DNA from: an uncultured bacterium
GTDB lineage: Bacteria > Zixibacteria > MSB-5A5 > UBA10806
NCBI GenBank assembly: GCA_965541585.1
Contig: CBEUCH010000003.1
Coordinates: forward strand, 1-64,000
DNA: 64,000 bases
Direction: 5' to 3'
A program made the translations under genes and the position numbers. Positions 586 through 24,616 of this stretch are shown here, piece by piece (within the stretch, counting starts at the first letter, position 1; the number at the start of each line of letters is the position of its first letter). The notes under the pieces were generated by a model. It made no database searches and was not told where the DNA came from. It saw only the letters and a program-made list of their open reading frames with translations.

Positions 586-3500
586 ATGAAGAATCTAACA
601 GGCTTTATATTGATATTGGCCGTCCTGGCGATTGCTCCCGTGGCCTCTGCTGTCGTCATAAACATACCAGCAGACTACCCCACCATACAGGAAGGCATAG
701 ACGCCAGCTCCGATGGCGACACAGTGCTGGTTCAGCCGGGGGCGTATGTGGAGAACATCAATTTCAACGGGCATAATATCGTGCTGGGGTCGCTGTTTTT
801 GACGACGGGGGATACGTCCTATATCTCGACAACAATTATTGATGGTGATTCGTCGGGAACGGTTGTGACTTTTGAAAGCGGTGAGGATAGCACTGCGGTT
901 GTTACTGGATTTTCGATGCAAAATGGTCGAGCATACTACGGTGCTGGCGGGGTTTATATTTCCGGCAGCAGCCCCATCGTTAGAAACAACACTATCAGCG
1001 GCAATTCAACCGATTACAGCGGCGCCGGGGGGATCTATTGCACCAATTCAAACCCCGCAATCATCAATAATACAATCAGCGGAAATTCAGCTTATTACGG
1101 CGGCAGGGGAGGAGGCATCTCTTGCGGTAGTAATTCCAACGCCACGGTGATCGGCAACGTGATAAGCGGAAATAGCGCCTATTCGGGTCACCATGAGGAC
1201 GGGGGAGATGGTGGCGGAATTTCTTGCTATAACTCCGATCCTACTATTATTGACAACATCATCACGAGAAATTCAGCTGTTTCTGGCGGGGGTATTCACT
1301 GCGTTGATTCCGATCCCGCAATCCTGGGCAACACAGTTATCAATAATTTCGGCAGTGCGATTTCCTGTATAAGCTCCTCTCCGACATTAACTAACAATAT
1401 CCTCTGGAAGAATGGCAGATCGGAGATTTACGCCGACGAATCCTCATCCCCGGCGTTTACCTATTGCGATATCTGGGGGGGGTGGGAAGGGGAGGGAAAT
1501 ATCGATATTGACCCTCTGTTTCTGGATCCGCTTAACGGCAACTATAATGTTTGCTCTCAATCCCCATGCATCGATGCCGGAGATCCTGATATGCAGGATC
1601 CGGACGGAACCCGAGCCGATATCGGTCTTTTCTTCCCGGAGCATCCGGAATGTTTCAATGGAAATGTCTGGAACGTCTCTATGGCAGGCAACGATACTAC
1701 GGGGGACGGTTCGCCTGAGAATCCCTTCCGAACGATTCAATATGCCATCGATACTTCTCTTCATGGTGACACAGTTCTTGTTCAAAATGGCACCTATGTT
1801 GAGAGTATCAATCTTACTGTTAAAAAAATCGTATTGGCTTCAAACCACATTTATTCGGGGGATCCGCTTGATATTCAGAATACTACTGTCGACGGTAATT
1901 CATTATATAGGACCCTAAGATTATGGTTGTGCGATAGCACGGTAGTTATAACAGGGTTTACATTCAGAAATGCAGCGGGGCCGGGTATTACCTGCTATTA
2001 CTCCGATGCCACCATAGTCAACAACATCATCACAGGAAATTCAGCTTACGTTGGAGCCGGGATCTTTTGCGGGTCGTTTTCCAAGCCCAGGATTACGAAC
2101 AATATCATAAGTGGAAACTCCGCCAGCTCTGGAGGGGGAGTTTATTGCTTCTATTTTTCCAGGCCGGTGATAACCAACACCATCTTATGGGCTAACACGC
2201 CGCCCGAGGTTGTCGTTAACAGCTCTTTGACGCCGATCATAACGTATTCTGACATCAGAGGTGGCTGGGAAGGAGAGGGCAACATCGATGTTGACCCTCT
2301 ATTTGTAAATCCATCTGACGTCAATTTTAACGTATGCTCTCAATCTCCATGTATCGATGCTGGAGATCCTGATATGCAGGATCCGGACGGAACCCGCGCC
2401 GATATCGGTCTGTTCTTCCCGGAGCACCCGGAATGTATTTTCGGAAATGTATGGAATGTTTCTGTTTCGGGCAGCGATACCACTGGCGACGGATCGCCCG
2501 AGAATCCCTTTAGGACTATACAACACGGTGTTGACGCTTCGCTATTCGGTGATTCGGTAATTGTTCAGAATGGCATTTATGTGGAGAATGTCAACATCAA
2601 AGGGAAGAGCATTTCGGTGGCTTCCAATTACATATTTTCTGAGGATCCTCTGGATATCGAAAACACAGTAATCGATGGCGATTCGGCGTCATCGGTGGTA
2701 ACTTTCGAAAGTGGTGAGGACAGTCTGACGATCATAACAGGCTTTACACTCAGAAATGGCTATGCCAGTGACGGCGGTGGGATCATTTGTTTGCGATCCA
2801 GCCCAACAATCAGGAATAACATGATAGCTGAGAATTCTACCGGCAGTGCTGGAGATGGCGGTGGGATTTACTGCGCCTATTCGAATGCCAAGATCGTCAA
2901 TAACAGCATACGCGGAAACTCAGCCGAATCATACGGCGGCGGCATTTCATGCTATCGTTCCAGCCCCCTAATCATCAACAACGCCATTGAAGAAAATTCT
3001 TCTGGATGGGGCGGTGGTGGAATTTCTTGCATTCAGTCCGGCCCTGCAATCATCAACAACGCTATAAAAGGAAATTTAGCAAATAAGGGCGGAGGAATTC
3101 GTTGCAGTGGCCTGCCTCCCCCCACTATCAGTAATAATGTTATTGCCGCGAATTTCGCATTTAACAGCGGTGGTGGAATTAATTGTACTTGGTGCGGTAG
3201 TGCAGCGATCAGTAATAATACCCTCATTGAAAACTCGGCCAACATAAGTGGTGGTGGGATTTACTTCTGGCAATCAACCCCGGCAATAAGAAACAGCATT
3301 TTTTGGGCAGATGACGCCCCGGAGGGTCCGGAGATCTATATAGAAAGTGGATCACCGTCGTTTATGTATTGCGACATCCAGGGTGGATGGGAAGGCGAGG
3401 GCAACATCGATGTCGATCCACTATTCCGAGACCCTGAAAATGGAGACTTTCATTTAAGGGCTATTGAATGCGGGGACGCTGGAGATTCCCCCTGCATCGA

Positions 3501-3900
3501 CGCAGGAGACCCGACAATCTTTGACAGCATTATCGATTGTGACTGGGGGTTGGGCGGTGAGAGAAGCGATATGGGGGCTTACGGAGGAAACGCGGAGCCT
3601 CCAACTGATATTGAAACGGATGAAGCCGGATTGCCTGCTCAATTCGCTTTATCGCAGAACTACCCGAACCCGTTCAATGCCTCAACGACGATTCAATACA
3701 GCTTGCTCGAAGCCAGCCAGGTCAAAATCGAAATCTACGACATCCTTGGCCGCAAGGTTGAGACGCTGGTTCAAGGGGAACAACCAGCGGGCTATCATCA
3801 AGTGATCTGGGATGCCAGTGATCAGTCTTCGGGCGTGTATTTTTACAGGATTCAGACGGGGAAAAATGTTGAGACGAAGAAGATGGTGCTACTCAAGTAG
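586..3900 (+). CDS. Secreted protein with three pectin-lyase-like right-handed beta-helix modules and T9SS-type C-terminal domain
   Basis: Signal peptide; TIQxxID..GDTVLVQxGxYVE occurs three times; GGGIxC/NNxIxxN repeats; C-terminal QNYPNPFN...SGVYFYRI..KKMVLLK. Confidence 0.85.
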   Translation: MKNLTGFILILAVLAIAPVASAVVINIPADYPTIQEGIDASSDGDTVLVQPGAYVENINFNGHNIVLGSLFLTTGDTSYISTTIIDGDSSGTVVTFESGEDSTAVVTGFSMQNGRAYYGAGGVYISGSSPIVRNNTISGNSTDYSGAGGIYCTNSNPAIINNTISGNSAYYGGRGGGISCGSNSNATVIGNVISGNSAYSGHHEDGGDGGGISCYNSDPTIIDNIITRNSAVSGGGIHCVDSDPAILGNTVINNFGSAISCISSSPTLTNNILWKNGRSEIYADESSSPAFTYCDIWGGWEGEGNIDIDPLFLDPLNGNYNVCSQSPCIDAGDPDMQDPDGTRADIGLFFPEHPECFNGNVWNVSMAGNDTTGDGSPENPFRTIQYAIDTSLHGDTVLVQNGTYVESINLTVKKIVLASNHIYSGDPLDIQNTTVDGNSLYRTLRLWLCDSTVVITGFTFRNAAGPGITCYYSDATIVNNIITGNSAYVGAGIFCGSFSKPRITNNIISGNSASSGGGVYCFYFSRPVITNTILWANTPPEVVVNSSLTPIITYSDIRGGWEGEGNIDVDPLFVNPSDVNFNVCSQSPCIDAGDPDMQDPDGTRADIGLFFPEHPECIFGNVWNVSVSGSDTTGDGSPENPFRTIQHGVDASLFGDSVIVQNGIYVENVNIKGKSISVASNYIFSEDPLDIENTVIDGDSASSVVTFESGEDSLTIITGFTLRNGYASDGGGIICLRSSPTIRNNMIAENSTGSAGDGGGIYCAYSNAKIVNNSIRGNSAESYGGGISCYRSSPLIINNAIEENSSGWGGGGISCIQSGPAIINNAIKGNLANKGGGIRCSGLPPPTISNNVIAANFAFNSGGGINCTWCGSAAISNNTLIENSANISGGGIYFWQSTPAIRNSIFWADDAPEGPEIYIESGSPSFMYCDIQGGWEGEGNIDVDPLFRDPENGDFHLRAIECGDAGDSPCIDAGDPTIFDSIIDCDWGLGGERSDMGAYGGNAEPPTDIETDEAGLPAQFALSQNYPNPFNASTTIQYSLLEASQVKIEIYDILGRKVETLVQGEQPAGYHQVIWDASDQSSGVYFYRIQTGKNVETKKMVLLK

Positions 3901-3920
3901 TATCTCCTAATAGAAACGCT

Positions 3921-3951
3921 AAAGGGGAGCCAATCGGCTCCCCCTTTTTTT
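3921..3951 (+). terminator. Rho-independent terminator
   Basis: GGGGAGCC-AATC-GGCTCCCC hairpin followed by a T run, just after the stop at 3900. Confidence 0.85.
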
Positions 3952-4019
3952 CGCGTCAAAACCGAATGGCATATCTTTCATACAACCAAACCCCAAGTCC
4001 ACAATAAGTCCACACTTGA

Positions 4020-4200
4020 TGGTTAAAGCGTGGTGTTTTCTGGTGTTTTGTGGTGCTTTCTGGTGTAGGTGAAATCAGAGTTAATTTATTGCTACGCTTT
4101 ATATTACAAGGCGCAACAACAACTTATCTGAAATCTCTTGTAAGGACTTAAAATCCCTCGGGCGGTTTCGTCCGTGCCGGTTCGATTCCGGCTTCCGGCA
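4020..4200 (+). repeat. Copy 1 of 181-bp direct repeat (att-like site ending in tRNA-Leu 3' half)
   Basis: Aligns without gaps to 6678-6858 at offset 2658; about 29 mismatches in 181 by hand count. Confidence 0.9.
4144..4200 (+). pseudogene. 3' half of tRNA-Leu(UAA) (att core fragment)
   Basis: GGA-CTTAAAA-TCC anticodon arm, long variable arm GGGCG-GTTT-CGTCC, T arm GCCGG-TTCGATT-CCGGC, acceptor 3' strand TTCCGGCA. No D arm or 5' acceptor strand upstream. Confidence 0.85.
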
Positions 4201-4220
4201 TTCTAAGACATTAAAAGATA

Positions 4221-4255
4221 ATGGGTTGCGAAATCTGGGCCGCAATCCATTTTTT
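4221..4255 (+). terminator. Terminator hairpin downstream of tRNA fragment
   Basis: ATGGGTTGCG-N10-CGCAATCCAT followed by TTTTT. Confidence 0.7.
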
Positions 4256-4309
4256 GGTGGGTTTGGAGTGAGTCCTGCATGAGTCTACACTTTTTGCAGT
4301 TTCTACCAG

Positions 4310-4452
4310 TCAGTAGGGAAGTTTCGCCACCATGCCGGTCTTATATTTTTCTGCAAGATGAGCGTATATTTCTGTGGTTTTAATGGAGGAATGACCCTGC
4401 AATTCTTTAACTGTAAAAGCGGAACTCCTACCATTACCTGAAGCCGAGCGAA
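4310..4452 (-). pseudogene. Tyrosine recombinase/integrase C-terminal remnant (frameshifted)
   Basis: Manual translation: FARLQVMVGVPL, then a frameshift near 4417, then FTVKELQGHSSIKTTEIYAHLAEKYKTGMVAKLPY*. Matches the box II (L)GH..TT..Y motif with the catalytic Tyr. Too short for the ORF track. Confidence 0.85.
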
Positions 4453-4690
4453 CCTACCGTCTAACTCATAAGATATTCAGGGTTATCCCGAAGGCCGTAG
4501 AGAGAAGCCAGGATTTGATTCTGACCTCCTTCTGGTGATTACGGGATTTTACTACCACTATAACCAGCTTGTCGATTACATCAGCTTCCTTCTTTTACAG
4601 TCCGCCATCGGTTATAGCGAAGATTGTTTTATAATTGGTTTGCATCTGCACCAGTATCTGCTATGAAGTAAAAATACTAGTTCTATACTC

Positions 4691-6511
4691 TTATTTAGGT
4701 TCTTTAAAATTAAAATCATTTTCGAGCAGATGTAATCGTAATATTACCGTCGCCAGCAAATTATACTGAAGTCTATTCAAGCCCTTATCATTGAGGATTT
4801 GGTAAATTTTTAAATCTAGATTGTCTTCTATTATTGATGATGATTTTACAATTTCATGAAGGTAGGGGTCCAGTATTTTACTTTTGTATCTTTGGTATAG
4901 ACTTGTTAAATGAGCTTTCTTGGCTTGATGAAAGACCCACATGTGTTTTTTTGCAAACGACCTCAACTGTCTGAATATAAATGCCCGTTTTGAATCGATA
5001 AGCAAACCTGTGTTTGCGTATTTTATTTTCAGAGCATCCTTATCCAACGACTTAAAATAATGTATAAATAGTGCTTGATGTTTTTTAAGCTTATCTGGAA
5101 TATTTATCATCGACCTGAGAACATCGGTACCCCAGAATGGAGCTTGCAGCCAGAAAAAGAATCTTGATCGATCCTCTCCTTCCATAGTGAAGCGGAAGCC
5201 TCTCCCAAGCATAATAAAGTGAGCGTATTTCCAATTAAAATCGGTCTCGGGAAAATCGTTGAATACTGAAGAAAAGGTTTCAAAAAAATCAGACTGATTT
5301 ATACCGAGGAGAGAGCACGCATCTTCGACTTTAAATATCCTAAAGATATTAGTAATCGTATGGTATATATTACGCATAGTGGTTAATTGGGCATCGGCAG
5401 ATAGCTCATTCATAACATTCCCGCCGAGATCTCCGGTAAATAGTGCAATGTCATGGCCAAATTCCTGTTGAACCTGACGATACCCATCTAAAGCAACAAC
5501 CATATAAACAGAACTGCCGCTTTCCTGATTATAGGCAATTTGCTTGTAATCATCTATGCTTATAGGTTTATGCTGATATACACGCCAATCGCATGGTATT
5601 AGATTTACCAGATCGCGTGAAACTTCCACATCAACACGGTTTGTTCTTTCAGGGTTTAGTGACGTGTAGGCGGAGTATTTTATCTGTGATTCATTCAGAG
5701 CTAGCATTATTACCCTTGAATCGAGTCCTCCGCTGAGCGCAAGGACCGGATACAGCTCGCTTAGTTTTTCTACCCTGTTTCTAGTCGCTGTCACTAAAGA
5801 GCTTTCAAGTTCACTTGCACATTTATCAAAATTGACATCCGGGTCAGCTCGGTCGGTAAAATCCCATTGATAGAGCACTTTTATCTCAAGTCTTTTTTCC
5901 CTTCTGGAAAATCTTACAAAACTGGCTGGTTGAAACCTCATTATATCTTTAATCATAGTGCGACCACCCAGATTGAACCCGAAAATCAGACATTCAGCAA
6001 TTCCCATTTTATCAACAGTTTTTAAATTCAGTGTCGAGATAATCAACTTCGGTTCACGACTAATAAATAGATAATCATCTGTTGTTTTATAATATAGCGG
6101 TAATCTCCCGAGGGAGTCGTTGAACAAAACGATTTCACTAGTCGATTTGCTAATAATCAGAACAATAAATTCTCCATCACATGACAACAGCCACCGCGTC
6201 ATTTCTGTATAATCATAAGTGCGAGCCGTTGAAAAAAACTGCTTCGCGAATTTCTTTAAATCGTCTTGGATGCTATCATCAGATTTGTTGTATATACATC
6301 CCTCTATAAAAATCAAATAGTCATCGGTATCGATTATGGTTCTTGGATATTGAGAATATCCAGTAAATTTGACAATAATATACGGATTTTGATACAGATC
6401 AATTGTTTCAAACCGTTTATTTATTTCCATTATCTTGGTTGCATAAAGAAGTTTATTTTGATCTGTTTCATTGATTCTATTAAATGAACAATAAAGACTT
6501 AAACCTGGCAT
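4691..6511 (-). CDS. Asparagine synthetase B-like protein (Ntn-type domain plus ATP pyrophosphatase domain); N-terminus MPG lacks catalytic Cys
   Basis: DGEF..FNDSLGRLPLYY, LSGGLDSR PP-loop, FTGDLGG. Markedly AT-rich compared with its flanks. Confidence 0.8.
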   Translation of the reverse strand: MPGLSLYCSFNRINETDQNKLLYATKIMEINKRFETIDLYQNPYIIVKFTGYSQYPRTIIDTDDYLIFIEGCIYNKSDDSIQDDLKKFAKQFFSTARTYDYTEMTRWLLSCDGEFIVLIISKSTSEIVLFNDSLGRLPLYYKTTDDYLFISREPKLIISTLNLKTVDKMGIAECLIFGFNLGGRTMIKDIMRFQPASFVRFSRREKRLEIKVLYQWDFTDRADPDVNFDKCASELESSLVTATRNRVEKLSELYPVLALSGGLDSRVIMLALNESQIKYSAYTSLNPERTNRVDVEVSRDLVNLIPCDWRVYQHKPISIDDYKQIAYNQESGSSVYMVVALDGYRQVQQEFGHDIALFTGDLGGNVMNELSADAQLTTMRNIYHTITNIFRIFKVEDACSLLGINQSDFFETFSSVFNDFPETDFNWKYAHFIMLGRGFRFTMEGEDRSRFFFWLQAPFWGTDVLRSMINIPDKLKKHQALFIHYFKSLDKDALKIKYANTGLLIDSKRAFIFRQLRSFAKKHMWVFHQAKKAHLTSLYQRYKSKILDPYLHEIVKSSSIIEDNLDLKIYQILNDKGLNRLQYNLLATVILRLHLLENDFNFKEPK

Positions 6512-6677
6512 TTCAAATCCCCTGGCCCGAGATATTGTAATGTATTTCCGCTACCCTCTCAAAAAAATATTTAGATTATCAAATATTTAGATACAATATA
6601 ATACTAATAAAGTCAAGTGGGAAACATTTATTCTCCATAAAGTACGGTAACAGGGAAAAGCGTACGTAGAAGCTTTG

Positions 6678-6858
6678 TGGTTAAAACGTGGTATCTTCTG
6701 GTGTTTTGTGGTGCTTTCTGGTGGAGGTTAAATCAGGTCTAATTCATCGCTACGCTTTGCATTCTGCAGCGTTGCAATAACTTATCTGAAACCTCTTGTA
6801 ACGACTTAAAATCCCTCGGTCCGTATGGACTGTGCCGGTTCGATTCCGGCTTCCGGCA
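6678..6858 (+). repeat. Copy 2 of 181-bp direct repeat (att-like site)
   Basis: Collinear with 4020-4200. Confidence 0.9.
6803..6858 (+). pseudogene. 3' half of tRNA-Leu(UAA) (second att core fragment)
   Basis: GACTTAAAATCC, variable arm GGTCC-GTAT-GGACT, GCCGGTTCGATTCCGGC, TTCCGGCA. No 5' half. Confidence 0.85.
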
Positions 6859-6895
6859 GCTATTTAACCCCCCCGGGATTGATTAAATATAAGAC

Positions 6896-8293
6896 ATGGC
6901 CCGCCTCTGCCTCTTCGCAGAAGGCGTGGGTGTTCAGTTGATAGTTTATTCAACCGATATTACTAAAGCAATGCAGGTTTTGCCAAAAACAGATGACTCG
7001 ACTGCGGGATCGCCGAATGAGCAGGGAATCACCGAATTAGAAGATAAACTCGCTGATCAAGCCAATAAATTCACCGATATTTCCCGTGTCGGCACTGTAA
7101 TCACTTCCATTATGGATCTTGATCGAATCCTGCCGGTGGTTATGGAATCGGCCCTGGCCATGGTGAAAGCCGAAGTGGGGCAGATGGTTACTTTCGATGA
7201 GCAGGGTCTGGTAGAATCCTCGGTTTCCTGGGGGATCTCGGAGCAGGTGACCGATGAAATACAGAATCAAGAGGGAGTCACTCTCTGGAGTTTTATGGCG
7301 AGGTCCGGAGATCTTCTTAGAATTGATGATATTTCAAGCAGCGCCGAGTGGAGTCTTTCTTCCAAGATAGCCCATATTACTTCTCTTGTGGCAGTGCCCC
7401 TGATTGCGCAAAGCCAAATCATAGGGGCTCTGGCTGTCGCTAACAAGATAGAAGGGTGCAGTTTCGATGATGACGACCTTTTCGCCCTTGAAATATTGGC
7501 CAGGTTCGCCTCGGTCGCTATGGTAAACAGCGCCCTGTATGAGCAATCGTTGGCAAAACAGAAGCTCGAGGCGGATATTGAGATGGCCCGGCAATTGCAG
7601 GACACCCTGATGCCGGATAAGGTTATGGATTTTGGAAATCTCGCGGTTCATGGCTATAACACCATGGCCATGCAGGTCGGCGGAGATCTTTACGATGTCG
7701 TTCAGCTCTCCCGAAATAGATTCATGCTTGTGGTCGCGGATGTATCCAGCAAAGGTTTCCCAGCTTCCCTGCTTATGACCTCAACCAGAAGTCTTATACG
7801 GGCCTACGCTATCGAAAAATTCTCATTAGCCGAAATCGTCACAAATGTGAACGAGCAACTCTGCAGCGATTTCCGGGGGCTTAGCTCGATGTTCGTAACG
7901 CTGATTCTGGTCTATCTTGATTTCGAGGCCGGCGTGATAAAGTCCGTCAACGCCGGACATCCGCCCGGACTGGTCAGCTATCCCGATGGTAGTATCGTCA
8001 ATCTGAAATCGGGCGGACCGTTCATTGGTCAATTCGAGGGGCTCAACTATAGCGAACAGGTTGTTCCCATGCTGCCCGGAACCAGAATCTTTCTTTATAC
8101 CGACGGAGTCTTCGAGTGCGTCGACGGGAGAGGTCAGATGCTGGGCTTATCAGGATTGAAAGGATTTTTCGAAAAGCATCACAGAAATTCACCTGAAGAG
8201 TTTTTATGTCTCATGTCCGAGAAACATGAAGAATACAGCGTCGATCCCGACCGGATAGACGATACGACCTATATCATTGCGGATACGAGGTGA
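6896..8293 (+). CDS. GAF plus PP2C (SpoIIE/RsbU-like) serine phosphatase; start may be ATG 6971
   Basis: GAF region, then VGGDLYD, VADVSSKG, NAGHPP, YTDG, DDTT motifs. Confidence 0.9.
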   Translation: MARLCLFAEGVGVQLIVYSTDITKAMQVLPKTDDSTAGSPNEQGITELEDKLADQANKFTDISRVGTVITSIMDLDRILPVVMESALAMVKAEVGQMVTFDEQGLVESSVSWGISEQVTDEIQNQEGVTLWSFMARSGDLLRIDDISSSAEWSLSSKIAHITSLVAVPLIAQSQIIGALAVANKIEGCSFDDDDLFALEILARFASVAMVNSALYEQSLAKQKLEADIEMARQLQDTLMPDKVMDFGNLAVHGYNTMAMQVGGDLYDVVQLSRNRFMLVVADVSSKGFPASLLMTSTRSLIRAYAIEKFSLAEIVTNVNEQLCSDFRGLSSMFVTLILVYLDFEAGVIKSVNAGHPPGLVSYPDGSIVNLKSGGPFIGQFEGLNYSEQVVPMLPGTRIFLYTDGVFECVDGRGQMLGLSGLKGFFEKHHRNSPEEFLCLMSEKHEEYSVDPDRIDDTTYIIADTR

Positions 8294-8748
8294 TCATGGA
8301 AAAGTATACCTTCTCGTTTCCAAATACCTCCGGAGCCTACGAGATATCCGCAGATATATTAAATCCCGTTATTGAAAGCCTGATTGTGGATGTTTCTGAG
8401 AAGCAGAGGCTGAAGCTGATCGTCTCGGAGCTTGTCATGAACGCCTATATTCACGGCAACAAAGGAGATCCGAACAATACAATTGACGTCGCTATTCTAA
8501 TTGATGATGAGAATTTCGATGTTACGGTAAAAGACCAGGGGGAAGGTCTCGACGAGGGAAAATTCAGGGATATTGTGATGTCTGTTTCGGAAGAGAAAGA
8601 TGAAAGCGGTAGAGGAATGAAAATCGTGAACAAATTGTGCGATAAGGTTCAACTTTTTAGAGATGAGGACGATAAATTTTGTATCAGGGTAACCAGAAAA
8701 ATAAAACCCCACCCGGCCGATATTAAGCAGGGTGCCGGCAGGGATTAG
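8290..8748 (+). CDS. RsbW-like anti-sigma factor/serine kinase
   Basis: SELVMNAYIHGN, VKDQGEG, SGRGMKIV (HATPase_c_2 type). Confidence 0.85.
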   Translation: MIMEKYTFSFPNTSGAYEISADILNPVIESLIVDVSEKQRLKLIVSELVMNAYIHGNKGDPNNTIDVAILIDDENFDVTVKDQGEGLDEGKFRDIVMSVSEEKDESGRGMKIVNKLCDKVQLFRDEDDKFCIRVTRKIKPHPADIKQGAGRD

Positions 8749-8762
8749 TCGATGGAGGAGAT

Positions 8763-9095
8763 ATGAATATTACTCAAAAAGACGTTGGCGATGTAAGCAT
8801 TATCGGTCTTCAGGGAAGACTTGATTTGACCAGTGCCGCGGAATTGAAAAGTGCCTCGCGCAATATTATCGACAGGCAAAACTGCAAATTGATCCTGAAC
8901 ATGGAAGCGGTAGAATTCATAAACAGTTCCGGTCTGGGAGCGCTGGTCTCTATTCTGAAGGATGTTCGGAGCTCACAAGGAGCGCTGAAGATTTCAAATC
9001 TTGCGCCCTATGTCAAAGAAATTTTCGATATTACTCAGCTCTCGAATATCTTCGATATCTGTGAGAACGACCAAATCGCAAAGAACAGCTTCTGA
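8763..9095 (+). CDS. STAS anti-anti-sigma factor (RsbV-like)
   Basis: GRLD..., FINSSGLGALV phosphoacceptor motif; 110 aa. Confidence 0.9.
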   Translation: MNITQKDVGDVSIIGLQGRLDLTSAAELKSASRNIIDRQNCKLILNMEAVEFINSSGLGALVSILKDVRSSQGALKISNLAPYVKEIFDITQLSNIFDICENDQIAKNSF

Positions 9096-9186
9096 TCCAG
9101 ATTATCGCCGGAAATAGATTCAGGCACTTGATGGGCGCGGTAACCGGTGTCGTTTGTTGAGTTATCGCCGCTAGTATCGGGGGAAA

Positions 9187-9792
9187 ATGAAATCGGAAAA
9201 TGCCGGAAGGAAATCTTCAGCAAGGGGAGGAAAAGATTCCGCTGTTGAAAGCTCTGTCGAAGTCATGGTTATTGACGATGATGCTTTTGTTCTCGAACTC
9301 CTGAGCGAATTCCTGACCGATAGCGGCTATGATGTTTTCACCATAGATTCCGGTGAGGCGGCGCTCGACCAGATGAAGATTGCCAGCCCGGATGTAGCTC
9401 TGGTGGATTTCAAATTGCCCGGCATGGATGGGCTGGAGACTATCCGGCGAATTAACGAGATGTCCTCAGATACCGTGACCATAATCATGACAGGATTTCC
9501 CACACTGGATTCCTCCATAATGGCTATAAAGCTGGGGGCTTCGGATTATATCTTAAAACCTTTCAAGCTCGACGAGGTCTCGCTTTCTCTGCAAAAAGCC
9601 GTTAAAGAGCGGAGAATGAAATCTGAAATGAACCAGCTGCGAGAAAAAGTCTCGCAACTCGAAAGCAGCATTTCCGAAAAAAAGGATAGCATCAAAATTC
9701 ACAAAAACGTGGGAGTTATTCCGGGTCCGCACGGCTATTCCGCCAAATATGCCAGGCCGAAAGATACCGGGAATGCAAAGCCCGGCTCCTGA
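9187..9792 (+). CDS. Response regulator receiver with C-terminal coiled coil
   Basis: VIDDD, DFKLPGMDG, MTG, YILKPF. Confidence 0.85.
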   Translation: MKSENAGRKSSARGGKDSAVESSVEVMVIDDDAFVLELLSEFLTDSGYDVFTIDSGEAALDQMKIASPDVALVDFKLPGMDGLETIRRINEMSSDTVTIIMTGFPTLDSSIMAIKLGASDYILKPFKLDEVSLSLQKAVKERRMKSEMNQLREKVSQLESSISEKKDSIKIHKNVGVIPGPHGYSAKYARPKDTGNAKPGS

Positions 9793-9892
9793 TAGAGGAT
9801 TCGGCTAAGTCCGTCTTGTTCTCTGTATCTTAGAAAATCGCTTATATTTACCGGTAGTCCGACGGTAGCGAGGTCAGAAAATCTACAATTTT

Positions 9893-11188
9893 GTGTTGAA
9901 TTTTCGGCAGGCTATGGTAAATTTCCCTGAAATGGGAAGCAAAGAGAGCGAATTAGAGAAGCTCGAGAAACTGGCCGAATCGTTCGGCAATATGGGAAGC
10001 GTCACCCAGATGATGCGTGATTCCTATTCCAGGCTCGAGTCTAAATTCGAGGATCTCCACTCTCGCCTGGCCAGGGTCAATAAACTGCTGCGGAGGTCTC
10101 TGGCTGAGCGAAACCGTCTCGCCAACTATATGAACAGCATCCTTGAAAGCCTCGATTCCGGGGTTATTGTCACCGACCGATCCGGGATTATAAATATATT
10201 TAATTCCGCTGCAGAGAGATATACAGGTATCGAGGCGCAGGTTGCTCTGGGAAAAGACTATTTCGATGTCATGGGCGAAGCTGCATCGAGGGAGGCAACA
10301 GAGATACTCCAGGGTCGGCGAAGGTCCGTCTCGGGCGAAAGGGAATTTCAGTTACCGGATGGTTCGACAATCCCGGCGGGATATTCCATTACCCGGTTGC
10401 GTCAGCATGACGATAACGAGATGGGCGGCCTGGTCGAAATTTTGTATGACCTCACGGAGATTAAGAAACTCGAGGGTAATTTAAAGAGGATCTCGACCCT
10501 TGCCGCGCTTGGCGAAATGGCGGCAACGGTAGCGCACGAAATCAGGAATCCGATCGCCGGAATTTCCGGGTTTGCCTCGCTTATGATGCGAGATTTAGAT
10601 CCCGGCGACAAGAATAGAATATCGGCGGAGAAAATAAAAAGCGGGGTGGCTTCTCTGGAGGCTATAGTTGAAAATCTTCTCGATTATACCAGGAGCGTCA
10701 GCCCTGATATTCAGAATACTGAGCCAACCAAGCTGGTGGAGGAGGCCGTTAGAGATTTCCGGGAGGAAGAGATAAAGGACAGTCATTCTATATCGGTTGA
10801 GTACGGCTCGAGAAGTTTGGTGGCGCGGCTCGATCCCTATCTATTCAAGCAAATCGTCATAAATCTCGTTAAGAACGCGGTGCAGGCACTGCCCGATGGC
10901 GGCCAAATCAGGCTGAAACTTGACAGCAGCCCATCCTCGACCCTGATTTTGAAAGTCGAAGATACCGGGCCGGGGATTCCGGACGATATTTTCGATAAGC
11001 TCTTCACGCCTTTTTTTACGACGAAGGCAAACGGCACGGGTCTCGGCCTGGCCACCGTCAAAAAACTCGTTGAGCTCCACGCGGGGCAGGTGACAGTTGC
11101 GAATATCCCTGGCGGCGGAGCAGTGTTTACGATTGAAATCCCTCATATCGAAGGAGGCCCGAATGAAGCCCAAGATACTCATCGTTGA
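9893..11188 (+). CDS. PAS sensor histidine kinase (FleS/FlgS-like); start uncertain (possibly 9932)
   Basis: AHEIRNP H-box, NLVKNA N-box, [19 protein letters not shown]. Confidence 0.9.
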
Positions 11189-12521
11189 CGATGAAGCAAT
11201 TGTCCGGGATTTCATCTCGGAGGTCTTGATTCGCATGGGGCATGCTCCGCTGGCAGCCGATGGCGGAGAAAAAGCTATAAAGCATCTTGAACGCACCGAG
11301 TTTGACGTTGTAATTACCGATTTTAAGATGCCGGGCCTCACCGGCATCGATGTTCTGAGAAAAGCTCTCGAGCTTTGGCCTGATTGCCGGGTGATCATAA
11401 TTACCGCTTTCGGCACCATTGAGCATGCAGTCGACGCTATGAAGATGGGAGCGCACGATTATATCACCAAGCCGATCAGCCCCGATCATCTGGAAATGGT
11501 GGTCAGCAAGGCCCTGGAATATAAAAAGCTGAAGACCGAAAACCGCCTGTTACGAAATGAGATAATCGATAAGTTCTCGTTCGAAAATATCATCGGAAAA
11601 GCAGCCAATATGAAGGCGGTGTTCGAGCTTATCAGGAGAGCCAGCCCCTCAGACGCAACCATCTTGATTAACGGTGAATCGGGCACCGGGAAGGAGCTTG
11701 TAGCGAAGGCGATTCACTATAATTCGTCGCGCGCTAACGGCTCTTTTATAAAAATGAATTGTGCGGCTCTACCGGAGGGATTGATCGAATCGGAATTGTT
11801 CGGGCACGAGAAAGGAGCGTTTACCGGCGCTATCCGTGCCACAAGGGGTCGCTTCGAATTAGCCGATGGAGGCAGTCTGCTTCTGGACGAGATCTCTGAA
11901 ATTCCACCTGTCCTGCAAGCCAAGCTGCTCAGAGTTCTGCAGGAAAAAGAGTTTGAACGCATCGGCTCCGGCCAGACGATTAAGGTCGATGTCCGGGTTA
12001 TTGCCACATCCAACCGTGATTTGAGGGATGAGGTTGCCGGGGGGAATTTCAGAGACGATCTCTTTTACAGGCTTAACGTCATACCGATAGATATTCCGCC
12101 CTTAAGGCAAAGGCTCGAGGATATACCCCTTCTGTGCAACTATTTCCTGGACAATCTCTGCCTGAAATCCGGTGTCCCCATTAAGATATTATCCGAGAAG
12201 GTGATGCAGATATTCATGTCTTATTCTTGGCCGGGCAATGTAAGGGAACTTGAGAATCTGCTGGAGCGGGCAGTCGTAATATCCAAGAATCAGGAATTAA
12301 AACCGGTGGATTTTCCGCCCGAGATCACATCCGGCATAGCCGCCATCCCGTCCGGCACGATGGATGTGGGTATGAGTGTTAACGAGGCCGAGAAGATCCT
12401 GATTCTGAAAACCTTAAAGGCTCATGCGGGCAATAAAACGAGGGCGGCTGAGGTTCTGGAGATTTCAACTAGAACATTGCGCAATAAACTCCATGAATAC
12501 GGCTATACCGATAAAGGTTAA
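11163..12521 (+). CDS. Sigma54-dependent activator (REC-AAA+-HTH; FleR/FlgR-like)
   Basis: GESGTGKE, GAFTGA, LLLDE, WPGNVREL, Fis-type HTH; start [11 protein letters not shown]. Confidence 0.92.
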   Translation: MKPKILIVDDEAIVRDFISEVLIRMGHAPLAADGGEKAIKHLERTEFDVVITDFKMPGLTGIDVLRKALELWPDCRVIIITAFGTIEHAVDAMKMGAHDYITKPISPDHLEMVVSKALEYKKLKTENRLLRNEIIDKFSFENIIGKAANMKAVFELIRRASPSDATILINGESGTGKELVAKAIHYNSSRANGSFIKMNCAALPEGLIESELFGHEKGAFTGAIRATRGRFELADGGSLLLDEISEIPPVLQAKLLRVLQEKEFERIGSGQTIKVDVRVIATSNRDLRDEVAGGNFRDDLFYRLNVIPIDIPPLRQRLEDIPLLCNYFLDNLCLKSGVPIKILSEKVMQIFMSYSWPGNVRELENLLERAVVISKNQELKPVDFPPEITSGIAAIPSGTMDVGMSVNEAEKILILKTLKAHAGNKTRAAEVLEISTRTLRNKLHEYGYTDKG

Positions 12522-12591
12522 TCTCGAGCCTCTGATCTCCGGCGCTTAAATCGGTATCAAATAGCCAATATCCAGCCATTATCCCCCTGAT

Positions 12592-12618
12592 TAAGGGGCT
12601 CCCTTAGTTTGCCGATAT
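12592..12618 (+). promoter_or_regulatory. Sigma28 (FliA) promoter for motAB
   Basis: TAAG-N15-GCCGATAT, about 30 nt before the motA ATG. Confidence 0.75.
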
Positions 12619-12648
12619 TTGCAAGTGAGGGAGCTTGTCTACAAGCAA

Positions 12649-13410
12649 ATGGATATTGCTACAATCGCAGGTTTAATAATCGGCATAGGAGCCGTGGCAG
12701 TTGCCTTTCTGATGGAAGGCGGCGCCATTTCTTCTATACTTCAACTGCCGGCTATGATCCTGGTGATCTTCGGTACCATAGGGGCGGCCATGGTCACCAC
12801 CTCACTTGAAACATTAAAGAATCTACCTAACCTATTGAAGATCATATTCTTCGGTAGAATTGAACAGCCCCAGAATCTAATTGTCAGAATAGTGAGAATG
12901 GCGGAGAAGGCTCGTCGCGAGGGGATTCTCGGCCTTGAGAGCGATCTGAAAGACAAGCACAATCCCTTCTTCAAGAAAGCCCTGCAATTGGTAATAGATG
13001 GCACCGAGGTTACCGTCCTGCGCTCCATCCTTGAAACAGAAATGGCTTACATCTCGGAGCGGCATACCACGGGGCAGACTTTTTTCCAGAAGCTTGGCGG
13101 TTTTTCCCCGACTCTCGGTATTATCGGAACAGTCTTGGGCCTTATCAACGCCTTGAGCAATACCGAGGATGTCTCCTCCATGGCGATCCACATAGCCTCG
13201 GCCTTCATCGCAACGTTGTGGGGAATATCTCTGGCCAATCTTCTCTATCTGCCCATCAGCGATAAACTGAGATACCGCAATCGGGAGGAGATGCAAGGCC
13301 TTGAACTCATAATCGAGGGACTGATCTCCATCCAGTCGGGCGAGAATCCCCGGGTGATAAGAATTAAACTCTTGTCTTTCATCACACCCAGAGATCGCGG
13401 AGGTGAATAA
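12649..13410 (+). CDS. motA: Flagellar stator MotA
   Basis: MDIATIAG..., ARREGILGLE, PTLGIIGTVLGLI, ATLWG, GENP. Confidence 0.95.
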   Translation: MDIATIAGLIIGIGAVAVAFLMEGGAISSILQLPAMILVIFGTIGAAMVTTSLETLKNLPNLLKIIFFGRIEQPQNLIVRIVRMAEKARREGILGLESDLKDKHNPFFKKALQLVIDGTEVTVLRSILETEMAYISERHTTGQTFFQKLGGFSPTLGIIGTVLGLINALSNTEDVSSMAIHIASAFIATLWGISLANLLYLPISDKLRYRNREEMQGLELIIEGLISIQSGENPRVIRIKLLSFITPRDRGGE

Positions 13411-14229
13411 TTGGCCCGCAACTCTGAAAGAAATCCCGAACGGGAAAATCTGGAGCGCTGGCTGCTTACTTATGCTGATCTGATCACTCTGCTTCTGGCA
13501 TTTTTCATAGTACTGTATTCCATGTCAAAGGTCGACATAGAGAAATTCCATGAAGTCACCGTGGCGCTTCATTGCGTCCTTCAGGGCAAGAAACTCCCTT
13601 CCTTGCCACCCGGTTCGCGATTCGTTTATGATGAATCAGGCAATAGCAACCTCAAATTGGGAGATTTGGTGACGCTCAAGCGTGAGATTGAGACAAAATT
13701 GGAAGAACTGGGATTTTCAGATAATATAAGGGCAACTCTTGATCGACGCGGCCTGATCATCCGCGTATCGGAATCCGCTTTTTTCGATCTGGGATCCGCC
13801 GACCTGAGAATGGAGGCCACGGGTATCCTCGACCTGATAGCGGAATTTCTTCTTAGAATCCCGAACCATGTACGTATCGAGGGGCACACCGATAACCTGC
13901 CCATAAAGACCAGCAAACATCCATCGAATTGGGAACTATCCGTAAATCGCGCCACCATCTGTGTCCGTTATCTTATAGTCAAGCATAAGTTTCCTCCTGC
14001 ACGGATATCAGCATTGGGATATGGTGAATACCGTCCAATTGCCGGCAATGAAACCCCCGATAGCCGTATCAAAAACCGCAGGGTGGATATAATAGTCTTG
14101 AGCTGGGAGGAAAAACGTAAAGAACCTCCAGCCGAAACAGAAGATATTTCACAAACAGTGGAAAAAAATTCCTCCCTCGGGGATGAAATAATTGCCGATG
14201 TCAATCGAGTCGAGTTTCTAACCGACTGA
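13411..14229 (+). CDS. motB: Flagellar stator MotB
   Basis: WLLTYADLITLLLAFF; OmpA-like EGHTDN..NWELS..RA..NRRV. Confidence 0.95.
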   Translation: MARNSERNPERENLERWLLTYADLITLLLAFFIVLYSMSKVDIEKFHEVTVALHCVLQGKKLPSLPPGSRFVYDESGNSNLKLGDLVTLKREIETKLEELGFSDNIRATLDRRGLIIRVSESAFFDLGSADLRMEATGILDLIAEFLLRIPNHVRIEGHTDNLPIKTSKHPSNWELSVNRATICVRYLIVKHKFPPARISALGYGEYRPIAGNETPDSRIKNRRVDIIVLSWEEKRKEPPAETEDISQTVEKNSSLGDEIIADVNRVEFLTD

Positions 14230-14269
14230 ATCTAAAGATATTAGACAGTTATATTTCACGGATCGGCTG

Positions 14270-14285
14270 TGGCATACTCTTTGCT
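14270..14285 (+). promoter_or_regulatory. Sigma54 -24/-12 promoter for flgB operon
   Basis: TGGCATACTCTTTGCT with canonical GG-to-GC spacing. Confidence 0.8.
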
Positions 14286-14389
14286 CAATGCAGGTCAGGC
14301 AGGGTTTTTAGGTTTGGTTTTATGGCAGGAATTGAGGACCAAGAATTTCACAAAAGAAAAGTCACATCTGTCCGCCCGAGCAATAGCAT

Positions 14390-14806
14390 ATGCTGATTAA
14401 GGGAAAACTATTCGATAAGGCGGGAATCCCGCTCTACGAGAAACTTTTAAGGGTTGCTTCGTCAGCACAAAAGGCCACGGCATCTAATATCGCCAATGTC
14501 GCCACGCCGGGGTATAAGACTAAATCCGTTGATTTTAAAAGCGAGATGAAAAGACTCCTGAATCAAAAATCATCCGTTCCCCCGGCAACTACGGACTTCA
14601 GGCATATTGCCACGGGGATTTCCCGCGACGTTGTTAGAATAAAGGAGATTCAAGACGACAATCAAGCATCGGGTGTCAATAATGTCGACATAGAACGGGA
14701 AATGATGAATCTATCAGAGAATGAACTAATCTATAAATTCGGCGCCGGCAAGCTGGCCAGGACCTTCGGATTGCTGAAAATGGCTATCAGGGGCAGGGCA
14801 CAATGA
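14390..14806 (+). CDS. flgB: Basal-body rod FlgB
   Basis: SNIANVATPGYK..VDF; NNVDIEREM. Confidence 0.92.
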   Translation: MLIKGKLFDKAGIPLYEKLLRVASSAQKATASNIANVATPGYKTKSVDFKSEMKRLLNQKSSVPPATTDFRHIATGISRDVVRIKEIQDDNQASGVNNVDIEREMMNLSENELIYKFGAGKLARTFGLLKMAIRGRAQ

Positions 14807-15297
14807 GCGGCGTTTTCGGCATTTTTCAGATAAGCGGATCGGGCCTTTCGGCGCAACGAAAGAAGCTTAACGCTGTAGCACAGAATATTGCCAACGTGGA
14901 GACTACCCGCACGCCGGAGGGTGGCCCTTATCGTCGCAAGCATGTAGTTTTTACCGAAGATAGGGCAGGGGGTGGTTTTTCATCTACTCTGAATCGAGCC
15001 GTGACGCGGCTGGCGCGTACCGACAGCAAACATATCGGAAGCTCCGGAGCGGTTTCCTCGCGGAGAAACAATAATCCGGCGGTGCAATCTCAGGAGATAG
15101 AGATCGAGCCGGAATCGTTTAAAATGGTGTATGATCCTACTCACCCCGACGCCGATGAGAACGGTTATGTGGCTATGCCTGATATCAACATAATAGCCGA
15201 GATGGTCGAGATGATGGCCGCCTCGCGGGCCTATGAGGCCAATATCTCAATCGCCCGGGCGGCCAAATCGATGTTCAAAGAGGCGCTCAATATTTAG
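14803..15297 (+). CDS. flgC: Basal-body rod FlgC
   Basis: NIANVETTRTPEGGPYRRK; YDPTHPDADENGYV; SRAYEAN. Confidence 0.95.
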   Translation: MSGVFGIFQISGSGLSAQRKKLNAVAQNIANVETTRTPEGGPYRRKHVVFTEDRAGGGFSSTLNRAVTRLARTDSKHIGSSGAVSSRRNNNPAVQSQEIEIEPESFKMVYDPTHPDADENGYVAMPDINIIAEMVEMMAASRAYEANISIARAAKSMFKEALNI

Positions 15298-15307
15298 AGG
15301 ATAGGTT

Positions 15308-15595
15308 ATGAAAATCAATCTTGTTTCAGAAGCCACGTATTACCCGGCCAGGGTAGTACAAAAGCCGGAGACCAACGCAGGGCAACCGGTTGACCGCAAA
15401 ACACAATCCCCGGAATCCAGCAGCTTCGAAAAACTGCTTCTGGGAAAACTGAGTCCCGACGAAGCCGCCTCAATAAATAAGCTTTTCGGTGATTTCAAGG
15501 TCAATTCAGCAGAGGAGTCAAAGCCTGGCGGCTTGAATTCCAGCGATAAGGCGGGATCCGTCCTCCGCGGCAAATTTGTCGATATTACAATCTGA
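15308..15595 (+). CDS. Small hypothetical flagellar-locus protein ending RGKFVDITI
   Basis: GAGG RBS; fills the flgC-fliE gap; stop overlaps the fliE start. Confidence 0.7.
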   Translation: MKINLVSEATYYPARVVQKPETNAGQPVDRKTQSPESSSFEKLLLGKLSPDEAASINKLFGDFKVNSAEESKPGGLNSSDKAGSVLRGKFVDITI

Positions 15596-15897
15596 TGACT
15601 AAGATTTTACCAGGATATTATCCATTCAATCTACCCGACTCGCGAGCGGTCAAGCTACCGGCGACGAAAGTAGAATCTGAATCTTTCGGGCAGATATTTA
15701 AGAATTTGATTTCCGAAACCAATCAGCTCCAATCGGAAGCCGGGAAAATTGCAGAGAAATTCGCACTCGGGGAGATCTCGGATTTACATGAGGTCATGAT
15801 CGCGGCGGAGAAAGCCGGTGTGGCATTCGAACTGGTGCTGGAAATTAGGAATAAGCTCATAGAGGCATATCAAGAGATGATGAGGATGCAGGTCTAA
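15595..15897 (+). CDS. fliE: Hook-basal body protein FliE
   Basis: LHEVMIAAEKA..EIRNKLIEAYQEMMRMQV. Confidence 0.95.
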   Translation: MTKILPGYYPFNLPDSRAVKLPATKVESESFGQIFKNLISETNQLQSEAGKIAEKFALGEISDLHEVMIAAEKAGVAFELVLEIRNKLIEAYQEMMRMQV

Positions 15898-15900
15898 ACC

Positions 15901-17439
15901 ATGGATTATTTATCGGATATCTTTAAGAGCCAGTTCAAACCCTGGTGGGACGATTTAAACGGCGGTGCCAGGTTAATGTATGTCGGCACAACCCTGGCGT
16001 TGCTGGTGGCGGCAATTGTCACTTTGGTTTTCATATTCAGTCCCACTTATGAAACGCTGTATGTTGGCCTTGATGCCGCGGAAGCGGGCCAGGTCGCTGA
16101 AAAGCTGAAAGAGTACAAGGTGGGCTACCGTCTGGAAAATGGCGGCACAACTATAGCCGTTCCGCGCAGCGATATATATGACGTCAGGCTTAAGCTGGCC
16201 TCCGAGGGCTTGCCCCGTTCGGGAAGCGTTGGCTACGAGATATTCGATGAATCTAATCTCGGCATGACCGAGTTCCTGCAAAAGGTAAATTACCGGCGCG
16301 CCCTGGAGGGCGAGATCGCCAGATCCATCAGCAGCATTCGAGGCGTACAATCCGCCAGGGTACATATCGTTATACCCGAATCGAGGCTATTCAGAGAAGC
16401 TCAGAAGGAGGCCACGGCATCCGTGGTGCTGTCTCTCGGTGGCGCCGGAGGAATTTCATCGAGCCAGGTTGAAGGCATCGTCTACCTGGTGTCATCGTCG
16501 GTAGAAGGATTGATGCCGGACAAAATTACGATTCTCGACTCATCCGGCCGTTTGCTTTCAAGGAAGCAATCTGGAGGCGCGCTCGGCGCTTTGTCGGCAT
16601 CCCAGCTGGACCTGCGAAAGCAGGTCGAGAGTTATCTGGAGGAAAAGGCGCTCAGTATGCTTGATCCCGTGGTCGGCTCCGGTAAGGCGGTCATCCGTAT
16701 CTCTGCCAAACTGAATTTCAAGCAGGTCGAGGAAACCATTGAGAGCTTCGATCCCGATAATCCGACGATCAGGTCCGAGGAGAGGATCACGGAGAACTCT
16801 TCCGAGGAAAATTCCAATCCCGATGATAGAGGAAAGAACATCACAAACTCTATTGAAAATGTGGTGACAAATTACGAAATCAATAGAACTGTTCAACACG
16901 TTGTAAACAGTGTGGGCAATATCGAAAAGTTATGGGTATCAATACTTGTCGACGGCGTCTATAAGGAAGTCGAAGGCGAGGAAGGTCTACAGGAGCAGTA
17001 TGCGCCTCGATCACGGGAGGAGCTAGACCAGATCGCCAGCATCGTGAAAGGCGCGGTGGGATTCGACACCCGGAGAAATGACGTGCTGGAGATCGCCAGT
17101 GCTCCTTTTACGCGGCAGGATTACGACTATTCAGAGCCCTTCTTCAACAACCAGAGAATCGACGAATGGCTTCGCATAGGTGGTAAAGTGGTCTTCCTGG
17201 CGCTTGCAGCCATAATATTCTTCAAAGCCAGAAAGAGGTTTGCGGAGTTTATGAAGCGGCAGAGCATTGAAGCCAAAAGGCGCGCCGCCCATAGAGAGAC
17301 ACAGCGGAAAAGGGAGGAGCTTATACCCAGGCTCCAGGATGAACCCCAGCTTGCCGACCATCTAAAAGAAATTGCCAAGCAAAAGCCGGACGAAATAGCC
17401 AAGGTGGTCAAAACCATGATGGCCGAGGAACCCGAATAG
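15901..17439 (+). CDS. fliF: MS-ring FliF
   Basis: GYEIFD..GMTEF, RALEGEIARSI, ARVHIVIP, ATASV. Confidence 0.95.
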   Translation: MDYLSDIFKSQFKPWWDDLNGGARLMYVGTTLALLVAAIVTLVFIFSPTYETLYVGLDAAEAGQVAEKLKEYKVGYRLENGGTTIAVPRSDIYDVRLKLASEGLPRSGSVGYEIFDESNLGMTEFLQKVNYRRALEGEIARSISSIRGVQSARVHIVIPESRLFREAQKEATASVVLSLGGAGGISSSQVEGIVYLVSSSVEGLMPDKITILDSSGRLLSRKQSGGALGALSASQLDLRKQVESYLEEKALSMLDPVVGSGKAVIRISAKLNFKQVEETIESFDPDNPTIRSEERITENSSEENSNPDDRGKNITNSIENVVTNYEINRTVQHVVNSVGNIEKLWVSILVDGVYKEVEGEEGLQEQYAPRSREELDQIASIVKGAVGFDTRRNDVLEIASAPFTRQDYDYSEPFFNNQRIDEWLRIGGKVVFLALAAIIFFKARKRFAEFMKRQSIEAKRRAAHRETQRKREELIPRLQDEPQLADHLKEIAKQKPDEIAKVVKTMMAEEPE

Positions 17440-24566: not shown

Positions 24567-24616
24567 TACATCTCCTTAGGTTTGAGCATAGGAACAATCT
24601 TGTGTAGTATTGTCTT

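Follow-up and report, generated by a model that had tools for sequence, protein, structure and literature searches.

The left end of contig CBEUCH010000003.1, from an uncultured bacterium of the Zixibacteria, raises the question of how two partial copies of one transfer RNA (tRNA) gene came to enclose a short, AT-rich unit. Throughout, the window denotes the whole analysed stretch of 64 kb, and the element in question is the 2.66-kb unit that ends in the second of these copies. The initial annotation had taken the arrangement for an integron-like capture platform. Our analysis instead points to a decayed remnant resembling a cis-mobilisable element (CIME), which was probably left at tRNA-Leu(UAA) by tandem accretion and lies beside the end of a related element. 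We thus read the locus as the remnant of an ordinary genomic island, of a known kind and here in an uncultured Zixibacteria lineage, and not as a new gene-capture system. The features on which this reading draws are listed below, where P and P′ denote the two arms flanking the core (O) of an element's attachment site (attP).

3983–4144, plus strand: P arm of the left-hand element; a homologous arm is found at 5407–5467 of relative locus L002 (84%), and the arm is repeated at copy 2 from 4015 on
4145–4200, plus strand: 3′ portion of tRNA-Leu(UAA), copy 1, identical outside the variable arm to the intact tRNA-Leu(UAA) of eight relative loci and not called as a tRNA
4201–4309, plus strand: P′ arm of the decayed element; 4144–4444 matches 9998–10298 of relative locus L001 at 77%
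4310–4476, minus strand: C-terminal remnant of a tyrosine integrase, a pseudogene, located by tblastn with the L001 integrase and by three-frame translations
4691–6511, minus strand: AsnB-like ATP-pyrophosphatase of 606 amino acids (aa), intact and the sole cargo gene, assigned by Pfam (GATase_7), Foldseek and family alignment
6673–6802, plus strand: P arm of the decayed element (copy 2), which keeps a phased TGGTG block and lacks the AAGTCCACA pair
6803–6858, plus strand: 3′ portion of tRNA-Leu(UAA), copy 2, joined to the chromosomal flank found directly 3′ of the intact tRNA-Leu in relative locus L007
6859–16925, plus strand: native chromosomal flank, annotated with Pfam and collinear with relative loci L007, L004 and L008

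A repeat search of the window returned ungapped direct repeats at 4015–4200 and 6673–6858 (186 nt, offset 2658, 83%), each unit consisting of a 130-nt arm followed by the final 56 nt of tRNA-Leu(UAA). A recount gave 155/186 identical positions overall, split into 105/130 for the arm (4015–4144) and 50/56 for the tRNA part (4145–4200); on 4020–4200 it yielded 152/181 or 84%, reproducing the 181-bp repeats of about 84% identity at the same offset that had been counted by hand. Identity drops to chance on both sides of the unit (9/32 on the left, 13/60 on the right), and copy 1 compared with all other offsets in the window showed a mean identity of 24.9% with a standard deviation of 3.2% and a second-best value of 38.2%. 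The tRNA-derived segments of the two copies are identical over 17 nt in the anticodon region and over 27 nt in the T arm and acceptor, the latter stretch occurring in the window in the two copies only, even with up to 3 mismatches allowed (0 expected in 100 shuffles).

Alignment to intact genes resolved the 56-nt part into 3 nt of the 5′ strand of the anticodon stem, the UAA anticodon loop, the variable arm, the T arm, the 3′ strand of the acceptor and A73, bearing out the earlier description of the repeats as displaced tRNA-Leu(UAA) 3′ portions that begin in the anticodon stem. Both copies show mismatches in the 5′ strand of the anticodon stem. The tRNA parts of the two copies differ at six positions, which, as read from the alignments, all lie in the variable arm and leave its stem of 6 bp intact: two pairs are altered on both sides, one G-C pair is changed to G-U, and one base differs in the loop. 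Since they preserve the stem, these differences fit each half having served in a working tRNA. Neither ARAGORN nor Rfam at the gathering score identified a tRNA gene in the 64-kb window, and a permissive Rfam search gave as its sole match a sub-threshold tRNA-like hit at 4125–4200 (23 bits versus 47). The displaced fragments characteristic of an island integrated in a tRNA gene (tDNA) are therefore present as two 56-nt portions, both on the plus strand, with copy 2 abutting the native flank.

Relatives were collected by a pattern scan of a genome collection, combining the anticodon region of the half tRNA with its T arm and acceptor, which yielded eight loci in seven Zixibacteria metagenome-assembled genomes (MAGs). 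An intact tRNA-Leu(UAA) is present at all eight, preceded directly by tRNA-Cys in six of them. In the closest relative, L007, the ortholog of the window from 6859 onward begins immediately after the intact tRNA-Leu; by blastn, window 6803–14285 corresponds to L007 1501–8995 at 82.4% and 14374–16925 continues at 84.3% (7.5 kb and 2.6 kb), the junction aligning base for base from the 3′ end of the tRNA. The first protein of the flank, a GAF-SpoIIE phosphatase, is 84% identical at the amino acid level to its L007 ortholog. Locus L004 is likewise collinear with the flank at 64–70% identity, and L008 and L003 carry the downstream genes at matching distances. Because collinearity with L007 and L004 sets in only where the tRNA part of copy 2 starts, all DNA left of 6803 represents an insertion relative to these two loci, observed directly against their empty sites. 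Copy 2 joins arm, tRNA part and native flank as that flank is joined in L007, and hence represents the right-hand attachment site, attR, with the order P-O-B′. The claim of an inserted, integrase-dead islet between the copies is thereby supported by the empty site in L007 and L004.

The flank itself encodes the GAF-SpoIIE phosphatase, an anti-sigma-type kinase, a STAS protein, two-component and sigma-54 regulators and MotAB, and then continues into the flagellar regulon. Within it, 6896–12521 forms a partner-switching module (GAF-SpoIIE phosphatase, HATPase_c_2 kinase, STAS) together with a PAS histidine kinase and a sigma-54 activator, and motAB and the flagellar genes come next; an insertion into the tRNA-Leu site thus adjoins a motility regulatory block.

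At copy 1 the situation on the right is different, as the DNA following the tRNA part is unrelated to the chromosome and homologous to that following the intact tRNA-Leu in L001 (77% over 303 nt). There, the tRNA-Leu is followed by a hairpin with a T-run, a tandem AAGTCCGCA pair and the end of an integrase open reading frame (ORF). The left arm of copy 1 is homologous to the arms of copy 2 and L002, and its right flank to the P′ arm of L001 and L005 and to the integrase tail, each of these flank homologies being directly observed in the alignments. Copy 1 hence combines P arm, tRNA fragment and P′ arm in an attP-like internal junction. An intact P-O-P′ layout of this kind within a chromosome is the signature of a joint between two tandem elements, so that the earlier reading of the displaced halves as a tandem array finds at copy 1 the architecture expected for such a joint.

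The integrase remnant that follows the P′ arm was detected with the L001 integrase by tblastn (4414–4310, 71% over 35 aa, E 5e-11). Its final 35 codons are in frame and include the catalytic-tyrosine motif; further upstream the translations, read by eye, show a frameshift near 4415 and the loss of the HxxR box, leaving a C-terminal remnant of about 55 codons as the only integrase sequence in the island. The integrase of the 2.66-kb unit is dead, and neither the ORF list nor the Pfam annotation of the window revealed an intact recombinase in the region. The L001 ORF beside the tRNA-Leu, on the minus strand, contains a Phage_integrase domain (9e-26) and scored best among NCBIfam models with the Xer/integron-integrase model (106.7 bits versus a cut-off of 220); with the integron-integrase subfamily model it reached 83.6 bits versus 265.

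The remaining content of the unit is equally sparse: besides the broken integrase tail only the single 606-aa ORF was found, in line with the integrase stub and one AT-rich gene that had been noted between the copies, and it is the only intact ORF of at least 50 aa there that is not nested in another ORF. The unit (4201–6672) has a GC content of 0.374 versus 0.495 in the downstream chromosome and a trinucleotide distance of 0.0597, and none of 219 core windows is equally deviant. A blastn search of phage and plasmid collections with 3960–4700, the sole stretch queried, gave no match.

Related DNA at other loci carries other genes. In L001, the truncated 190-aa integrase after the tRNA-Leu is accompanied by a 1357-aa protein with AAA_16, TPR and cyclase domains, a cNMP-binding histidine kinase and a C-terminal fragment of Cas3. 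In L005, the same P′-arm hairpin stands beside the intact tRNA-Leu with a weak integrase match (tblastn E 0.098, 22 aa), and about 5.4 kb of extra DNA, with genes for TPR, VanZ/DUF498 and peptidyl-arginine-deiminase-like proteins, precedes the native genes. Three of the nine loci compared (the window, L001 and L005) thus retain parts of related elements, whose cargo differs from one locus to the next. The initial annotation had considered that relatives might carry the identical arrangement with no cargo variation; cargo in fact differs between them. In L005, L001, L002 and L003, the DNA examined contained no right-hand repeat (attR).

The arms flanking the tRNA parts carry short repeated motifs. 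The P arm of the left-hand element contains two tandem AAGTCCACA motifs, at 3995–4003 and 4006–4014, and four TGGTG motifs at 10-bp spacing (4031–4065). It reaches 32 nt beyond the copy 2 arm, to 3983, and this extension holds the tandem AAGTCCACA pair; in the 64 kb, AAGTCCACA has two exact sites, both within 3995–4014. The phased TGGTG block matches in the window in the two arms only, with 0 expected in 100 shuffles; at the eight relative loci the exact phased pattern gave no match, and blastn only the partial arm in L002. The arms are 81% identical to each other and share strongly conserved blocks, with 28 nt identical. Related pairs recur as the tandem AAGTCCGCA in the L001 P′ arm and as a AAGTCCACA/AAATCCACA pair in the L002 arm homolog, and degenerate copies of an AAGTCCRCA pair were read by eye in the P′ arm of the window (4270–4289). 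We take these motifs as presumed protein-binding sites, judging from their sequence and arrangement. RNA folding of the 130-nt arms gave no signal relative to shuffles (z −0.40 and −0.30), with folds differing between the copies, and the repeat search reported no inverted repeats within either arm. In the P′ arm we read by eye a hairpin with its stem at 4223–4230/4241–4248 and a T-run to 4255, equivalent to the hairpins following the intact tRNA-Leu in L001 and L005; the terminator scan did not call it (10-nt loop). Hairpin and T-run would terminate a regenerated tRNA.

Taken together, we propose that tRNA-Leu(UAA) would be a recurrent target of integrative elements encoding an Xer-like tyrosine integrase. 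The attP of such an element would begin with a P arm bearing short motif repeats, continue with its own version of the tRNA sequence between anticodon stem and 3′ end, and close with a P′ arm supplying a terminator and leading into the integrase gene. Crossover, which we place in or near the anticodon loop, would rebuild the tRNA from this version, and the 3′ portion that the gene had before would end up behind the P arm, at the element's opposite end. Successive integration of two related elements would then give the tandem accretion, with the right-hand element (4201–6858) having subsequently decayed: its integrase would be reduced to a remnant and all but the foreign AsnB-like gene deleted, both attachment sites being kept. 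Copy 2 would accordingly be the attR of the decayed element, and copy 1 the composite of the left-hand P arm, the tRNA part and the P′ arm of the decayed element. Upstream of position 1 one would expect the intact tRNA-Leu, along with the main body of the left-hand element. The 2.66-kb unit might still be excised as a circle, in the manner of a CIME, by a related integrase supplied in trans.

These processes have precedents. In the Islander catalogue, 3760 of 3919 islands carry a 3′ tDNA fragment, 2083 have an anticodon-centred attP and 125 tandems of at least two are counted (PMC4383910). In tandem islands of this kind, an element with a tyrosine integrase restores the tRNA gene from its own copy and leaves the displaced 3′ fragment at its distal end, the attP may be centred on the anticodon, and islands at one tDNA each end in a fragment of the same orientation, all of which is seen or proposed here. 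The window differs in that the integrase of its island is a pseudogene, so that the Islander filter as given there, which demands an integrase for each member, would reject it, in that the intact tDNA lies outside the window, and in its host, an uncultured Zixibacteria lineage.

Decay to a CIME followed by accretion is treated in a review of integrative and mobilisable elements (IMEs), which describes accretion of CIMEs with integrative and conjugative elements (ICEs) or IMEs for ICESt1-related elements of Streptococcus thermophilus (PMC5704250). Measured against that description, the unit shares the loss of integration genes, the retention of both attachment sites and the tandem position with a related element, and by analogy it could in principle be mobilised by its neighbour's integrase; it differs in its target, a tRNA anticodon region in place of the 3′ terminus of a gene for a tRNA or protein. 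The genes for integration and transfer are lost, with an integrase pseudogene and the AsnB-like gene as the sole intact ORF; no conjugation or mobilisation genes were seen in the unit, so that an ICE, an IME, a prophage and a simple integrative element are all possible ancestors. The primary papers on CIMEs and accretion among ICESt1-related elements are reportedly Pavlovic 2004 and Bellanger 2011.

The cargo gene, with a GC content of 0.365 versus 0.495 in the downstream chromosome, encodes an enzyme of the AsnB superfamily. Its AlphaFold2 model (pLDDT 89.7) matched in Foldseek TsnB9 (E 1.5e-18), carbapenam synthetase, beta-lactam synthetase and AsnB (1ct9, E 8e-15), the E-values for the two-domain AsnB fold ranging from 1e-18 to 1e-15 at 11–14% identity to solved structures. 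All NCBIfam scores are far below cut-off, the best being TIGR01536 with 54.9 bits versus 267, and we therefore assign the protein to the superfamily only. The family is large, with 243 matches at E ≤ 1e-3 in many phyla. In an alignment of 18 sequences picked among the matches listed (120 of the 243), the PP-loop LSGGLDSR (SGGLDS) is invariant in all 18, and Pro-Gly follows the initiator in 17, which are all those having the N-terminus. The cargo protein retains all family-invariant residues and, on this sequence evidence, is probably functional; its fold suggests an ATP-dependent, carboxylate-adenylating, amide-forming enzyme.

Its N-terminus reads MPGLS and lacks the cysteine nucleophile of the glutamine-hydrolysing AsnB enzymes, which start with Met-Cys. 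Beta-lactam synthetase and the lasso-peptide cyclases are likewise not known to have an N-terminal cysteine nucleophile. With the members of the superfamily that lack glutaminase activity (beta-lactam synthetase, carbapenam synthetase, TsnB9, lasso-peptide cyclases) the cargo shares the two-domain fold and the SGGLDS PP-loop, and with several of them the absence of an N-terminal cysteine; it differs from them in its own conserved N-terminus MPGLS and in having no partner genes within the unit. The conserved Met-Pro-Gly-Leu-Ser stands where glutamine amidotransferases have Met-Cys-Gly, and an N-terminal proline is unusual in a pocket of the Ntn type. As a defence system the cargo was discarded, since PADLOC returned no family for the 606-aa protein.

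To the left of copy 1, the first 4 kb of the window contain two genes for beta-helix surface proteins of the type IX secretion system (T9SS), one of which is the following.

586–3900, plus strand: beta-helix surface protein of 1104 aa with a T9SS C-terminal sorting domain (Pfam Beta_helix 8e-35, Por_Secre_tail 2e-12)

This gene is possibly cargo of the left-hand element (island 1). Relatives show a conserved order of T9SS protein, tRNA-Gly, tRNA-Cys, tRNA-Leu and GAF-SpoIIE, and tblastx revealed similarity in the T9SS sorting domain between the beta-helix gene of the window and the gene upstream of tRNA-Gly in L007 and L004. Were the beta-helix gene to correspond to this conserved neighbour, a deletion of the tRNA cluster would follow; we rejected this identification, as the similarity amounts to 41% over the sorting domain only. 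Between L007 and L004, the T9SS gene is 64% identical over 137 aa including a part preceding the domain, and the flank orthologs are 84% identical. The left 4 kb, not being the conserved upstream neighbour, fits inserted DNA. The 1104-aa gene also contains internal direct repeats (1459–1758 versus 2242–2541; 300 nt, 79%) and families of 45–63-nt repeats across 1022–3292, consistent with recent expansion of its coils.

Several observations weigh against a tandem of two elements. Neither a displaced half nor a tandem array was found at any of the eight relative loci, so that the array is known from the window only. The window holds no intact tRNA-Leu, no tRNA-Cys preceding it and no intact integrase. 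The left 4 kb is host-like, with a GC content of 0.481 and with 19 and 57 of 219 core windows as deviant, Pfam revealed no mobile-element gene in it, and it is assigned to the left-hand element by position only. The arms are available in two copies, for which conservation is inseparable from recent common descent, and the roles proposed for their motifs are conjectured from the sequence. The Xer-like family call, finally, comes from the truncated 190-aa ORF of L001, which is below every NCBIfam cut-off.

The host-like character of the left 4 kb in GC and trinucleotides, with two surface-protein genes as its only content, could instead indicate an orphaned junction, in which a deletion, an inversion or some other rearrangement ending at the attachment site joined ordinary chromosome to the P arm, no left-hand element exists any longer and tRNA-Leu resides elsewhere. 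The P arm begins 30 nt past the terminator of the beta-helix gene, as such a join would allow, and the two tRNA-Leu(UAA) genes in the MAG harbouring L001 and L002 indicate that extra copies tolerating a loss exist in the phylum. However, copy 1 has the less eroded arm, still carrying the AAGTCCACA pair lost by copy 2, which fits a younger left-hand element; loss of the conserved tRNA-Gly/Cys/Leu cluster would need compensating copies; and no insertion sequence or breakpoint signature is seen at 3900–3983. We consider an orphaned junction unlikely, though a serious alternative, and retain successive accretion of two elements as the probable origin.

Locus L002 offers a separate view of the arm. 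L001 and L002, from one MAG, each have a tRNA-Leu(UAA) gene, on different contigs and with different variable arms, and only that of L001 is preceded by tRNA-Cys. At L002 5407–5680, the P-arm homolog, with its motif pair and part of the TGGTG block, precedes by about 150 nt a tRNA-like fragment that we read by eye as a class II tRNA-Ser(GCU) lacking its 5′ third. The fragment was called by neither ARAGORN nor the Rfam tRNA model, and its complement matched in Rfam a plastid 3′ untranslated region (UTR) model only. The arrangement suggests that the same arm was used with a different tRNA target in L002. The locus further contains 95-nt direct repeats (2712–2806 and 5195–5289, 73% identical) around a prolyl-oligopeptidase gene.

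From this one may conceive a family of small elements with Xer-like integrases in Zixibacteria, whose modular attP would combine a conserved arm, defined as the tandem AAGTCCACA pair plus TGGTG motifs at 10-bp spacing, with an exchangeable class II tRNA segment (Leu-UAA here, Ser-like in L002), and whose decay products would be single-gene units mobilisable in trans. We regard such a family as quite unlikely. If the idea were true, the tRNA-Leu site by the flagellar regulon would act as a slot swapping accessory genes such as the AsnB-like enzyme.

The capture platform of the initial annotation, with purpose-built non-autonomous single-gene cassettes sharing an end and served by an integrase encoded elsewhere, is not supported. 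It draws on the strongly conserved blocks of the two arms, on a one-gene unit devoid of a working integrase, on the arm homolog beside a different tRNA-like fragment in L002 and on the best-scoring model of the L001 integrase, albeit at less than half the cut-off. The unit, however, is the only cassette, and as it carries its own integrase remnant it was once autonomous, which speaks for decay and not design. A displaced half or the arm motif is absent from all eight relative loci, and the L005 remnant has lost its right repeat, as random decay predicts and maintained cassettes do not. The comparison with integrons themselves points the same way: shared are a promoter-less or single-gene unit, a recurring end at a fixed chromosomal site and movement by a tyrosine recombinase, whereas the region lacks intI, attI and Pc, the ends are ordinary attP arms of 130–160 nt with a tRNA fragment and not folded attC hairpins, and a single unit with its own dead integrase takes the place of a multi-cassette array. 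A platform of this kind is accordingly very improbable.

That the 186-nt units encode a functional RNA whose 3′ end resembles a tRNA, or represent halves of a tRNA-Leu that is split or carries an intron, is scarcely credible: the pairing-preserving differences and the weak tRNA-model match at 4125–4200 are what it would explain, against the absence of a 5′ half in the window and of any Rfam family match, arms folding no better than shuffles and differently in each copy, the mismatched anticodon stem, and an attachment-site architecture that fully explains the flank homologies.

General biology gains little from a decayed CIME-like remnant, since islands that target tRNA genes are already well known to decay and to accrete in tandem. 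For this lineage, the findings do identify a hot spot of repeated integration at tRNA-Leu(UAA), immediately before the block of partner-switching, sigma-54 and flagellar regulators; the anatomy of its attachment sites enables a still-active element to be recognised in Zixibacteria metagenomes, and a widespread, uncharacterised family of AsnB-like enzymes is flagged as mobile cargo.

Further into the window, two large genes on the minus strand (21735–27580), both with IPTL-CTERM sorting signals, break the plus-strand flagellar cluster between fliJ and fliK. One encodes an S8 subtilase with thrombospondin-type repeats and the other a protein with a CarboxypepD_reg domain, and no other stretch of the core region deviates as strongly in composition.

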